From assembly GCA_021157845.1 (NCBI GenBank), contig JAGGVU010000003.1, positions 1-32,000 of the forward strand: a stretch of 32,000 nt of DNA, written 5' to 3'. Positions within the stretch are counted from its first letter, which is position 1. Each line of letters begins with the position of its first letter. The position numbers were made by a program, and so were the translations under genes. The notes beneath the pieces are model-generated. The model searched no databases and was not told the origin of the DNA. It saw only the letters and a program-made list of their open reading frames with translations. This document shows, in pieces, positions 1 to 24,123 of this stretch. This DNA is from Candidatus Aenigmatarchaeota archaeon. GTDB taxonomy: Archaea > Aenigmatarchaeota > Aenigmatarchaeia > GW2011-AR5 > JAGGXF01.

Positions 1-2
1 AT

Positions 3-146
3 ATTTAAAATCAGCGAAGCTGATTTTAACATATCAAAATCGAATTTATAAATATCGTAAATTTAATTCGATTTAAATATATTTAAATCAACAAAGTTGA
101 TTTTGATATCTAATTGACTTTACGTCAATTAAATCGTCAATTAAAT
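3..146. repeat. Cluster of four perfect AT-rich hairpins plus a 12-nt tandem duplication
   Basis: Stems read directly: 5-15/19-29 (ttaaaatcagc / gctgattttaa, loop gaa); 37-46/65-74 (aaatcgaatt / aattcgattt); 85-92/96-103 (aaatcaac / gttgattt); 111-118/124-131 (taattgac / gtcaatta). cgtcaattaaat occurs twice in tandem (123-134, 135-146). Three stems begin AAATC and end GATTT. The cluster lies just 3' of the minus-strand gene ending at 169. Confidence 0.9.
36..110. mobile_element. Possible miniature insertion: 75-nt two-hairpin segment bounded by ATATC direct repeats
   Basis: The inverted copy at 21591-21645 joins hairpin 1 directly to hairpin 4 through a single ATATC. Here ATATC occurs at 31-35 and again at 106-110, with 70 nt (hairpins 2 and 3) between them. 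The segment starts aaaatc and ends gatttt just before the second ATATC. No coding capacity. Confidence 0.35.
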
Positions 147-3635: not shown

Positions 3636-3808
3636 GCCGGGGTAGCTCAGATGAACTTTTCAAAAAAAGTTCAATCAAAATGCGAAGTTCAGAGAAATGG
3701 TAGAGCGCTACGCTCATAAGAATTTATGAGCTATGAACTGCCTTGTGCAGTAATGACAAAACGCTCTAGGAAACGTAGAGGTCGCGAGTTCGAAACTCGC
3801 CTCCGGCA
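3636..3808 (+). tRNA. tRNA-Met or Ile2 (anticodon CAT) with two introns
   Basis: Exons 3636-3651, 3698-3719 and 3774-3808 join into a 73-nt cloverleaf. Acceptor GCCGGGG/CTCCGGC (one G-U), D stem GCTC/GAGC, anticodon stem CTACG/CGTAG, loop CTCATAA (CAT at 3715-3717), T arm GCGAG-TTCGAAA-CTCGC, discriminator A. Introns are about 3652-3697 (D-loop, 46 nt) and about 3720-3773 (at or next to 37/38, 54 nt); boundaries are ambiguous by 1 nt. G1:C72 and the anticodon stem argue against an initiator tRNA. Confidence 0.85.
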
Positions 3809-6766: not shown

Positions 6767-6961
6767 GCCTCGGTAGCTCAACTGGCAGAGCATCTGTTGA
6801 ACCTTTTTAGAAAAAAGCTTCAATGGAAAAAGAAAAGGTCCAGATGAAACTTGTAACTGACGAACTTTTAAAAGGTTCGATAAAAACTGATCTATTGATC
6901 GGCTTTGCCGAAATGAAAGCATGAGATCAGAAGGTTGGGGGTTCAACTCCCTCCCGAGGCT
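6767..6961 (+). tRNA. tRNA-Thr (anticodon TGT) with two introns
   Basis: Exons 6767-6796, 6849-6856 and 6927-6961 give a 73-nt cloverleaf. Acceptor GCCTCGG/CCGAGGC, D arm GCTC-AACTGGCA-GAGC, anticodon stem TCTGA/TCAGA, loop CTTGTAA, variable AGGTT, T arm GGGGG-TTCAACT-CCCTC, discriminator T (U73 is reported for archaeal tRNA-Thr). Introns are about 6797-6848 (inside the anticodon stem, about 30/31) and about 6857-6926 (at or next to 37/38). TATA-like tttttatat lies about 35 nt upstream and a T-run follows the 3' end. Confidence 0.8.
6799..6831 (+). repeat. Intron sequence module shared with tRNA-Gly intron 2
   Basis: gaacctttttagaaaaaagcttcAatgGaaaaa here versus gaacctttttagaaaaaagcttcGatgTaaaaa at 23966-23998: 31 of 33 nt identical. 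Confidence 0.9.
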
Positions 6962-7026
6962 TTTTCTTCTTCGGTTTTGTAACTGAAAAATACTTAAATT
7001 TAAAAAGGTTTGGACAACTAAATTCT

Positions 7027-7626
7027 ATGGTGATAAACATAGGAAAGAAAAGTGAAGATAAAAGAATAATTGAAGACTTAGAAACTAAAATATTAACTTC
7101 TTCAGGCATACCAAATTTAAAAAATGAACTAACTATAGTGAGAGATGGGAAAAAAATAGTTTATGTGGGTAAAGCAGAAAACTTACAGTTTCATATACAC
7201 ATAGGGTTCACAGGTTTATCTATTCTAGGACAAGCTAAGCTAGAAAAATATAATGTAAATGAAAAAAATTTATTAGGATTAAAGAAGAAAAAGAAAGTGT
7301 GGTCTTTTAAAACTCCCACATACTTAACTTTTATCTCTTTGCAGACTTTGGGTCAACATAGAGGAAACTTAGTTCGTAAAGAATTAACGGTGAACAGCAG
7401 TCAATATGATCAAATGATGATAGAAACGCGTTATTATGAAGAAGGTGGAGAACTGAAAACTTTGCAAATTGGTGGATACAAACAAGAGTTAGCACAAGTA
7501 GCTCTTAATGAAAAAGGGATAATATTAGACCCAAACCTTTTAGATAGTGTTTTTGAACCAATTGATAGAAAACTAATGGAAACCTATAAGAAAGTCTATG
7601 AGAAAATCTATGGGATGAAAATTTAA
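7027..7626 (+). CDS. Hypothetical protein
   Basis: 199-aa ORF directly downstream of tRNA-Thr. No recognisable family. Confidence 0.5.
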   Translation: MVINIGKKSEDKRIIEDLETKILTSSGIPNLKNELTIVRDGKKIVYVGKAENLQFHIHIGFTGLSILGQAKLEKYNVNEKNLLGLKKKKKVWSFKTPTYLTFISLQTLGQHRGNLVRKELTVNSSQYDQMMIETRYYEEGGELKTLQIGGYKQELAQVALNEKGIILDPNLLDSVFEPIDRKLMETYKKVYEKIYGMKI

Positions 7627-21403: not shown

Positions 21404-21590
21404 TGACCACACCTCGTTCAGTTTGACGCCAATTTTAATGGCCTTTTATACCATGAAATGGGTAATTTTTACCTTTTTATATAGATTATGATTATTTATT
21501 AAGGTTTCGATACTATTATATGGTAATAACTATATAAAAAGATTTCTCTCCTTTTATCTATATTATTAGTTGTATATGATGATATATATT

Positions 21591-21645
21591 TTAATTGACG
21601 TAAAGTCAATTAGATATGTTAAAATCAGCTTCGCTGATTTTAAAT
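21591..21645. repeat. Inverted copy of hairpins 1 and 4 of the window-start cluster
   Basis: The reverse complement of 21613-21645 equals 3-35 (33 of 33 nt). The reverse complement of 21591-21612 equals 111-132 (22 of 22 nt). Lies in the divergent intergenic region between 21257..21403 (-) and 21744..22130 (+). Confidence 0.95.
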
Positions 21646-21743
21646 AAATTTAAACATTAAAGACAAAATAAATATATGGGTTTAAAACTAACTGCTGTTC
21701 GCTCGTACAAAAGACTTGGAATGTTTGAGGCTTAAGAAGGGTT

Positions 21744-23107: not shown

Positions 23108-23433
23108 AACTTAATTAAACTGCATTGGTTTAAATTGTTTTTTACTTCAATCGCATAAGGCTTAATTAAAAAATATGACATCATTTTAATCAATAATAAT
23201 TTAATAATAACTTTATAAGCCCAAGATTTGGATAATTTTCAGAATCGGTCAAGATTCATCAAAAACTAGTTTAGCTTCATATCCATTTTTTTTATTTCAG
23301 CTTTTTCATAAATTATAAATTTTATACCCATCTCCGGATCTTTCATTATTGATGTTTTGTCATCAAGGATATTCATAAAATCACCAATAATATTTGTAGG
23401 GAATTTATTAAAAATCAGATAAAGAAAAGAATT

Positions 23434-23864: not shown

Positions 23865-24116
23865 GCGCGGGTAGTCTAGTGAACCTTTCTTTCAAAAAGA
23901 AAGTTTCAATCTAAAGAAACTTGAGAAAGGTTTGGAAAATCTGGTTAGGACCTTAGCCTTCCACCGAACCTTTTTAGAAAAAAGCTTCGATGTAAAAACC
24001 TGAAAGGTTTGTAAGAAAGCTAATGACCCGGGTTCAAACGAGCCCTTTCTCTTTATAAAGAGAAAGCCCTCGATGGGAAAGAGAAACATTAGGCTCTGAA
24101 AATCCCGGCCCGCGCA
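23865..24116 (+). tRNA. tRNA-Gly (anticodon TCC) with three introns
   Basis: Exons 23865-23880, 23941-23963, 24018-24038 and 24103-24116 join to GCGCGGGTAGTCTAGTCTGGTTAGGACCTTAGCCTTCCAAGCTAATGACCCGGGTTCAAATCCCGGCCCGCGCA (74 nt). Acceptor GCGCGGG/CCCGCGC, anticodon stem TTAGC/GCTAA, anticodon TCC at 23960-23962, T arm CCGGG-TTCAAAT-CCCGG. Introns are about 23881-23940 (D-loop), 23964-24017 (37/38) and 24039-24102 (T-loop); boundaries are ambiguous by 1-4 nt. Confidence 0.9.
23966..23998 (+). repeat. Intron sequence module shared with tRNA-Thr intron 1
   Basis: 31 of 33 nt identical to 6799-6831. Confidence 0.9.
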
Positions 24117-24123
24117 TTTTTTT
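24117..24123 (+). terminator. Oligo-T terminator after tRNA-Gly
   Basis: A T7 run follows the discriminator base directly. Archaeal RNA polymerase terminates at oligo-T tracts. Confidence 0.5.

Follow-up and report, generated by a model that had tools for sequence, protein, structure and literature searches.

Why should two tRNA genes for different amino acids carry nearly the same 33 nucleotides (nt) at different places in the tRNA? The question is raised by a 32,000-nt stretch (hereafter the window) of contig JAGGVU010000003.1 from a Candidatus Aenigmatarchaeota archaeon (assembly GCA_021157845.1), in which a repeat search detected a 33-nt direct repeat, positions 6799-6831 and 23966-23998, with 31 of 33 positions identical (94%). 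One copy lies in the first intron of a tRNA-Thr gene and the other in the second intron of a tRNA-Gly gene, and the two differ only at module positions 24 (A/G) and 28 (G/T). The initial annotation of the window had seen here a near-identical intron module in two different tRNAs, and its coordinates, identity and substitutions were all reproduced. The two segments are homologous, being paralogous copies of one module; when a degenerate form of the 33-mer was searched with up to three mismatches, the window yielded these two sites only, and 100 dinucleotide-preserving shuffles yielded no match. We consider the best explanation of the whole, with a probability of about 0.7, to be a paralogous hairpin module which forms the 5' core of introns of the bulge-helix-bulge (BHB) type and spreads between tRNA sites.

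The module and the introns that carry it

None of the host genes is visible to standard tools: in the raw 32-kb window, neither ARAGORN nor Rfam (E up to 1) called a single tRNA. Three tRNA genes were located by a hand-written scan for T-arm and acceptor pairing together with reading of the sequence, and their introns were spliced by hand under the rule that cleavage follows the second base of each 3-nt bulge. From the sequences without the seven hand-defined BHB introns, ARAGORN recognized Met(cat), Thr(tgt) and Gly(tcc) of 72, 73 and 74 nt, respectively. Removal of the inserts restores a canonical cloverleaf in all three cases, and the earlier assignments of Thr intron 1 to position 30/31 and of Gly intron 2 to position 37/38 are upheld. 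The predicted D-loop of spliced tRNA-Met (AGUGGUA) is identical to that of the L017-L019 orthologues, whose D-loop is uninterrupted (L-numbers denote loci collected from other genomes and metagenome contigs), which supports the splice-site rule used. Since standard finders miss all three tRNA genes of the window, the tRNA sets of such genomes are probably under-called.

In the module, an A/U-rich hairpin of 10 bp containing a C.C mismatch precedes an A-rich tail; the module starts 1-2 nt past the 5' splice site. On the 3' side both introns continue with a related element, GAAAAGGT at 6832-6839 in Thr and GAAAGGT at 24002-24008 in Gly; this shared continuation, which had also been pointed out before, is confirmed and corresponds to the true pairing partner of the module 5' arm. 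Thr intron 1 and Gly intron 2 are alike over their full length except for the last ~10 nt, the exon-pairing part, and it is in the splice adaptor that the two differ. The 33-nt module contains no C box (RUGAUGA) or D box (CUGA), an Rfam search of the introns gave no C/D match, and no Rfam family matches the module or the introns.

Both segments are parts of introns which, as modelled by hand pairing and folding, are spliceable BHB introns. In the hand-built structure of Thr intron 1, the central helix pairs CATC (6791-6794) with GATG (6843-6846) at 4/4 positions between the bulges TG|T and AA|A, and the inner helix joins UGAACCUUUU (6798-6807) to AAAAGGUCCA (6833-6842). In Gly intron 2, exon CUUC (23958-23961) stands opposite UAAG (24012-24015), with 3/4 positions paired and the bulges CA|C and AA|A, and CGAACCUUU (23965-23973) forms the inner helix with AAAGGUUUG (24003-24011). 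For both introns this long-range conformer is the minimum-energy structure in RNAfold, at -12.6 kcal/mol for Thr intron 1 and -17.5 kcal/mol for Gly intron 2, versus -11.2 and -14.8 kcal/mol with the local hairpin forced. The module appears to have two pairing options, its 5' arm entering either the inner helix of the BHB motif or a local hairpin weakened by the C.C mismatch.

The geometry of 3-nt bulges around a 4-bp helix was found as the RNAfold minimum-energy motif for Gly introns 2 and 3, and by hand for the rest. The fold of Gly intron 2 comprises the anticodon stem, a three-pair central helix, 3-nt bulges and a 10-bp inner helix, and that of Gly intron 3 has a 4-bp central helix UUCA/UGAA (4/4) between 3-nt bulges, in a layout (GAGCC... 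/ ...GCCCUC GAUGGG ... GGCUC UGAA AA) like that of the module introns. In the minimum-energy fold of Gly intron 1, GAACCUUUCU pairs with AGAAAGGUUU. The central helix is relaxed, with 3/4 positions paired, in Gly introns 1 and 2, Met intron 1 and Thr intron 2. In Met intron 2, 3/4 positions pair by hand (one as G.U), and RNAfold instead pairs the anticodon loop with the 5' part of the intron.

Two further structural readings were rejected. A kink-turn (GA...GA flanking the stem) would be out of register, since GAA is paired with UUC. An alternative 3' splice site made of the proximal arm and the tail pairs at 3/4 positions in Thr intron 1 but at 0/4 in Met intron 1, and was dropped as a general rule. 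In addition, the module 5' arm GAACCUUUU of Thr intron 1 (6799-6807) is perfectly complementary to AAAAGGUUC (6875-6883) in Thr intron 2, and RNAfold of the full Thr precursor pairs the two introns with each other; such pairing could couple or order their removal.

Looser versions of the pattern had been described at the start of Met intron 1, Thr intron 2 and Gly intron 1. A covariance model, R1 (31 positions, 10 pairs), was trained on 14 copies, 12 of them from other loci, and the window was searched with filters off; reverse-strand re-matches of the two training copies from the window were set aside in the ranking. With one exception (23242-23265), the top non-training matches are these three introns, and all intron matches lie at the 5' end of their intron on the sense strand (Table 1). 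Each non-training score is weak alone (E 0.05-0.4), and the signal is the location: since the introns take up only 401 of 32,000 bases, the ranks of the intron matches are very unlikely to arise by chance. The tail of Met intron 1 fits the general DPANN form AYCAAAA. Six of the seven window introns are thus members of the family, Gly intron 3 having the same layout with a longer stem, and Met intron 2 is not. The good R1 matches in the window are confined to introns, which is not the distribution of a generic AT motif present throughout intergenic DNA. Across ~142 kb of collected loci, many of which were picked for containing a copy, R1 gave 38 matches at E<0.05.

Met intron 2 (3719-3772), outside the module family, is conserved in relatives (orthologues in L016 and L017-L019). 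The 5' part of this intron, UUAUGAGC, can pair perfectly over 8 bp with the anticodon loop GCUCAUAA and is followed by UGA-containing motifs. By analogy with tRNA-Trp introns, which are known as box C/D-like guides, Met intron 2 may guide methylation of the anticodon loop.

Copies in other tRNAs and turnover among strains

Metagenome contigs were scanned with the exact 21-base pattern GAACCTTTTTNNAAAAAAGCTTC. The contigs obtained include ones 96-98% identical to the window, L033 with the Thr locus and L029 with the Gly locus, and others from the same sample series. In L032, the second intron (37/38) of a tRNA-Arg(GCG) gene carries a module identical to the Thr copy at 33/33 positions, the match to Thr intron 1 extending over 34/34. 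The module was also found, in the same sample series, in the 59/60 introns of tRNA-Glu(UUC), tRNA-Arg(GCG) (with an expanded loop) and tRNA-His(GUG), and these introns are 90-93% identical over 40-47 nt. After splicing by hand, the Glu, Arg, Trp, His and Val tRNAs of the other loci were canonical in ARAGORN. The family covers at least five tRNA identities, six with a tRNA-Trp variant, and four positions (15/16, 30/31, 37/38 and 59/60). In the Trp variant, GACCC/GCGUC stands in place of GAACC/GCUUC, a compensatory change from A-U to C-G with the C.C mismatch retained. The expectation that intron families cross tRNA identities and insertion positions is borne out by the Glu, Arg and His copies together with the Trp variant. 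The module-intron family crosses both, and it turns over on a strain-level time scale.

The turnover is visible at the tRNA-Gly locus (~296 nt), where the window and the 98%-identical L029 differ by two substitutions outside intron 3 (~230 nt), and by ~20 differences and a 4-nt indel within this 64-nt intron. The 5' arm of Gly intron 3 and both of its candidate 3' partners have changed together, with a CC.CC mismatch retained; the resident intron was replaced by a different family member and did not drift gradually. At the tRNA-Thr locus, both substitutions that separate the window from strain L033 fall within Thr intron 2. The D-loop intron of tRNA-Met is missing from L017-L019, which have the 37/38 intron only (L017 and L019 have the same gene order, so the three loci probably represent fewer genomes), and in L016 the same site holds an intron of similar length and different interior.

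Meanwhile, a tRNA-Trp(CCA) gene in L032 (6801-7245) contains three introns, two of which hold perfect tandem arrays of module units. The D-loop intron has a 48-nt unit repeated 2.3 times and the anticodon-loop intron a 40-nt unit repeated 2.6 times, the copies being 100% identical in both; the latter array lies 5' of a box C/D-like core (CUGGAGC...UGAUGG...CUGA). The tRNA-Trp genes of L016 and L017 have the core alone, without the module arrays and without the D-loop intron. The ancestral tRNA-Trp intron core (L016, L032), which carries the C/D motifs, is separate from the module.

Similarity across non-orthologous tRNAs, different positions in the tRNA, and gain as indicated by absence in relatives, which are the features of a transposed intron family, were all found here. 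The proposal that introns were duplicated or transposed between tRNA genes is supported by the 33/33 Arg copy, the exchange of Gly intron 3, the absences in Met and Trp, and the Trp arrays.

In Thermoproteales, tRNA intron families are described as spread by 'intron transposition' (Fujishima et al. 2010, Mol Biol Evol 27:2233; summarised in PMC4090602 and PMC3239211), and the suggestion that an AT-rich archaeon shows the same signature holds, the same pattern being seen here in a DPANN lineage. As for those families, recent gain is deduced from comparison with relatives. In contrast to them, the present family belongs to an AT-rich DPANN archaeon (Aenigmarchaeota-like), and what is conserved is not the whole intron but a discrete 5' hairpin module of 31-33 nt; this module is tandemly amplified in introns, shared across DPANN phyla and present outside tRNA genes as well. 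Disrupted tRNA genes are reported from the DPANN archaea ARMAN-2 (PMC3239211) and Pacearchaeota and Woesearchaeota (PMC5829648), together with broad-specificity splicing endonucleases. Multiple introns per tRNA, sites such as 59/60, and both strict and relaxed BHB motifs are common to those genes and to ours; the accounts, in the passages searched, deal with positions and enzymes, whereas here a shared intron sequence family or repeat element is found. The literature searched contained no description of the module or of intron families in DPANN. In Caldiarchaeum subterraneum, tRNA intron content varies within a natural population, which was taken as recent gain by a mobile element (PMC3293823). 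The intron content of one tRNA gene likewise varies among population members in our case; unlike the 1.8-kb recombinase-encoding element that integrates at a tRNA gene in Caldiarchaeum (PMC3293823), the element here is a non-coding hairpin of ~30-60 nt. Strains at 96-98% identity that differ in one intron, 100% identical tandems and intron-less relatives make this a second, independent lineage with apparently active intron spread.

Copies outside tRNA genes and a probable source of new introns

Where might new introns come from? A scan of one genome per species with the pattern GAACCTTTTTNNAAAAAAGCTTC returned 12 loci, nine of which are from DPANN or unclassified archaea: Woesearchaeota, 'Nanoarchaeota', Micrarchaeota, a B89_G9 bin and one uncultured archaeon. 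A tail (ACCAAAAA, AGCAAAAA, ACUAAAAA or AAUGGAAAA), which is not in the search pattern, is present in 9/9 archaeal and 13/14 metagenome loci. Three bacterial matches and one GC-rich metagenome match have no tail and look like chance. In other DPANN phyla, the same element of 23-31 nt occurs in tRNA introns, in intergenic DNA, in open reading frames (ORFs), where it lies in frame, and on the reverse strand of an RNase P RNA. A viral contig scan was uninformative, giving one sequence, seen twice, in an intergenic-like context. Confinement to introns stands for the good model matches of the window and fails for other DPANN genomes, where the hairpin is not intron-specific. Since it also lies between genes, in ORFs and in RNase P RNA, 'intron transposition' may be one aspect of a general repeat element.

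The minus strand of L008 191-545 is an archaeal RNase P RNA (Rfam, 114 bits), in which P1 and P2 can be paired by hand; the stretch at the position of P3 is ~40 nt longer than P3 of the Rfam model and holds the reverse complement of the full 31-nt element, including UUUUUGGU. The two in-frame copies that share a frame (L026, L004) form the linker of a lipoamide acyltransferase-like protein (motif by eye) in one case and a C-terminal tail in the other. Tandem Repeats Finder reported nothing for the array in L003, which is broken by a run of N, and Rfam gave only noise on a copy-rich stretch (L012 1-700).

A short imperfect palindrome in many copies, dispersed in non-coding and coding DNA, is what characterizes repetitive extragenic palindromic (REP) or miniature inverted-repeat transposable elements, and such a distribution was found here. 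Bacterial short palindromic repeats include REP elements and the Rickettsia palindromic elements, the latter being known as in-frame insertions in ORFs and as insertions in RNA genes. Like them, the present element is a short imperfect palindrome in many copies, which lie in intergenic DNA, at gene ends, in frame in ORFs (L026, L004) and in RNase P RNA (L008); unlike them, it is archaeal, much shorter than the Rickettsia elements, strongly orientation-biased and tied to protein-dependent splicing.

We infer that it is the hairpin module that spreads, and that each insertion becomes spliceable through a short 3' adaptor with complementarity to the module as well as to the upstream exon. The module 5' arm GAACCUUU would pair with a downstream AAAGGU(U/C) segment and form the inner helix of the BHB motif, and the last 4 nt before the 3' bulge would pair with the end of the upstream exon; given these two pairings, the splicing endonuclease could excise the whole insert and leave a normal tRNA. 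Archaeal BHB introns are cut by the splicing endonuclease EndA, joined by RtcB and released as a circle (PMC12558985, PMC7714728), and EndA cleavage and RtcB ligation would be expected for the module introns too. The module, or a whole module-bearing intron, would be copied into new tRNA sites or replace resident introns, and afterwards only the 3' adaptor for the new exon would differ. The copying might proceed by DNA recombination or insertion, or through an RNA intermediate. DNA-level events are suggested by the reverse-strand RNase P copy, by the copies lying in frame in ORFs and by the tandem arrays. An RNA intermediate, or selection on an RNA function, would also agree with the sense bias and with the placement of the module right where the intron begins.

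Because members of the family are found in several DPANN phyla, and not in tRNA genes only, new introns would most likely stem from a self-propagating palindromic repeat, tolerated in tRNA genes as it is spliceable. A more specific proposal, which we advance tentatively and with more doubt than confidence, is that a ~31-nt strand-specific palindrome, GAACCUUUUU-NN-AAAAAAGCUUC (with a fixed C.C mismatch) plus ACCAAAAA or AAUGGAAAAA, is the vehicle that makes new tRNA BHB introns. The first of these tails would be the general one and the second that of the window's lineage, the element being found in at least three DPANN phyla. It would land in a tRNA gene, gain a 3' adaptor for its own 5' arm and the upstream exon, and then be spliced out, and the same element would colonise RNase P RNA, intergenic spacers and ORFs. 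If true, archaeal tRNA intron gain would have its first concrete agent; to our knowledge, no agent or mechanism for gain at odd positions has become known since the Thermoproteales families were described. The copied unit is small, sharply bounded and also free-standing in DPANN genomes, which makes the question testable.

Several observations weigh against spread of the module between tRNA sites. No target-site duplication or conserved insertion motif was seen by eye in the 10-nt flanks of more than 20 copies. The orientation bias outside introns, with ~10 of 11-12 informative cases in the direction of local transcription, is explained by a functional RNA motif no less well than by a DNA element inserting at random. 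The resemblance of the intron 3' parts is partly forced, because pairing with the module and a terminal A-rich bulge are required of them. The cross-phylum identity over the 21 pattern bases is built in, because the matches were selected with an exact 21-base pattern. Finally, L024 and L032 belong to the sample series of the window's strains and may derive from other genomes.

The strongest competing explanation, which we regard as unlikely, is that hairpin and tail are a conserved functional RNA signal under purifying selection (protein-binding, processing or stability) and are not mobile; introns would then be alike since every one of them requires the signal. Outside introns, the 11-12 informative contexts comprise ~10 copies sense to local transcription and 1-2 antisense, a strong bias in mRNA contexts, and copies are placed 0-3 nt past stop codons and immediately ahead of the following start codon. 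The near-identity in at least three DPANN phyla would suit such a signal, as would the 10-bp stem followed directly by ACCA in the more general version of the element, which resembles a minimal RNase P or tRNA-minihelix substrate. The stem also covaries with the C.C mismatch retained: in an alignment of 26 distinct sequences fitted to the model, covariation was seen at the closing pair (GC/AU/CG/UA) and at pair 3 (AU to CG), stem position 4 being C.C in 17 sequences and A-U in 8. At 0.107, the covariation score is above that of every one of 500 shuffles and of every slid control, and no measure falls below its value in the slid controls; the sole measure not above every shuffle, pairs changed on both sides, was reached by 65 of the 500. 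However, a conserved signal does not account for the 33/33 identity, loop and tail included, between introns of different tRNAs, nor for intron replacement between strains, 100% identical tandem arrays and in-frame ORF copies. In addition, window variants lack the CCA (tails AAUGG, GAUGU and AAUCA), one copy lies on the reverse strand in RNase P RNA, and no Rfam family matches.

It is improbable that the introns are old and independently placed, with their 5' parts homogenised by gene conversion (concerted evolution) and without new insertions. The replacement of Gly intron 3 in place between strains, its flanks unchanged, would be expected from conversion, as would a similarity that peaks in the module and falls in the exon-pairing adaptor. 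However, the D-loop introns of tRNA-Met and tRNA-Trp are entirely absent in relatives, so sites have been gained or lost and not only converted, and the module is also found outside tRNA genes. Convergence on a low-complexity A/T hairpin has next to no likelihood. It might be forced by the need of every intron for a helix beside the 5' bulge in a genome of 30-37% G+C, and the window does contain other T-run/A-run hairpins. The shuffle control, together with the sharing of unpaired loop, mismatch and tail, all but rules this reading out; the identities of 31/33 and 33/33 also speak against it, as does the tail, which the bacterial chance matches lack and all archaeal matches have.

Two regulatory roles for the copies outside introns were also considered. 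A promoter (TATA-like palindrome) is inconsistent with a distance to the next start codon that varies from 0 to ~50 nt. A terminator was not adopted: copies follow stop codons, yet T5 also occurs in tRNA introns and in RNase P RNA, and runs of T5-T7 follow the tRNA genes. The T5 run of the module (6804-6808, 23971-23975) sits inside tRNA genes, and the T5-T7 runs directly 3' of each tRNA gene (e.g. 6962-6966 and 24117-24123) probably act as terminators. The tRNA-Thr gene has a TATA-like box on its 5' side and a T5 run on its 3' side.

Feature coordinates and neighbouring loci

Table 1. Positions of tRNA genes, introns and module copies in the window, and of copies in other loci (L-numbers)
Feature	Location	Strand	Basis or score
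tRNA-Met(CAU), two introns	3636..3808	+	ARAGORN on spliced sequence
Met intron 1, at 15/16	3651-3697	+	Hand-defined
Met intron 1 hairpin UGAACUUUU-C-AAAAAAAGUUCA and tail AUCAAAAU	3652-3681	+	R1 19.9 bits, E 0.05, non-training
Met intron 2, at 37/38	3719-3772	+	Hand-defined
tRNA-Thr(UGU), two introns; exons 6767-6796, 6849-6855, 6926-6961	6767..6961	+	ARAGORN on spliced sequence
Thr intron 1, 52 nt, at 30/31 in anticodon stem	6797..6848	+	BHB by hand, RNAfold
Module copy A, hairpin GAACCUUUUU-AG(A)-AAAAAGCUUC, C.C mismatch, tail AAUGGAAAAA	6799..6831	+	R1 47.3 bits
Thr intron 1 splice adaptor (predicted): AAAAGGUCCA pairs module 5' arm, GAUG pairs exon CAUC	6833..6846	+	Sequence reading, folding
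Thr intron 2, 70 nt, at 37/38	6856..6925	+	Module-like hairpin, R1 match
Thr intron 2 hairpin GAACUUUUAAAAGGUUC and GAUAAAAA	6862-6886	+	R1 18.9 bits, E 0.08, non-training
Non-intron R1 match	23242-23265		16.5 bits, E 0.25
tRNA-Gly(UCC), three introns; exons 23865-23879, 23940-23963, 24018-24038, 24103-24116	23865..24116	+	ARAGORN on spliced sequence
Gly intron 1, 60 nt, D-loop 15/16	23880..23939	+	Module-like 5' hairpin, R1 match
Gly intron 1, 5' hairpin	23881-23915	+	R1 15.6 bits, E 0.39
Gly intron 2, 54 nt, canonical 37/38 position	23964..24017	+	RNAfold BHB layout
Module copy B, same hairpin as copy A, tail GAUGUAAAAA	23966..23998	+	R1 44.3 bits
Gly intron 2 splice adaptor (predicted): AAAGGUUUG pairs module 5' arm; UAAG with exon CUUC 3/4	24003..24015	+	Sequence, folding
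Gly intron 3, 64 nt, T-loop 59/60	24039..24102	+	Minimum-energy fold; module-intron layout
Copy in tRNA-Val D-loop intron	L001
Copy in tRNA-Gly(CCC) anticodon-loop intron	L011
Copy in intron of multi-intron tRNA, variant GAAAC/GUUUC	L008
Copy as entire 31-41 nt spacer between co-directional genes	L005 (twice), L030, L023 (twice)
Copy as discrete AT-rich island in 47% G+C contig	L027, three copies
Copies in tandem array	L003
31-nt copy in frame in ORFs, same frame, EEPF-KKASPK	L026 377-407; L004 5898-5928
31-nt copy in frame in ORF, another frame, N-terminus of pilin-like protein	L028 125-155

The replication factor C small subunit encoded in the window is 98% identical to a protein of a metagenome contig and 60-70% identical to Candidatus Aenigmarchaeota proteins. 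The order of this gene and tRNA-Met differs in relatives, where MazG lies in between; the orthologous tRNA-Met is nonetheless close by.

Differences between strains are not limited to introns. Directly downstream of tRNA-Thr, ~5 kb in L033 (4148-9166) replaces a segment of ~0.5 kb in the window (6988-7520). This strain-variable island adjoining the tRNA gene encodes an AAA ATPase and three proteins without significant Pfam match, and no integrase was seen in it. Two hairpin-containing segments (37 nt, 97%; 28 nt, 100%) are shared by window positions 2-133 and 21583-21646, where they form inverted repeats separated by 21.5 kb. It is at the second site that the alignment to the 98%-identical contig L029 ends (window 21581), and strain contig L015 has its first 85 nt in inverted orientation with respect to the window; these repeats may mediate rearrangement or mark the end of a mobile segment. 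A weak Rfam match to SNORD107 with UGAUGA and CUGA (34 bits, E 0.006, below the gathering score) was found at 23198-23267 on the minus strand, inside a region (23143-23421) over which the window and L029 do not align.

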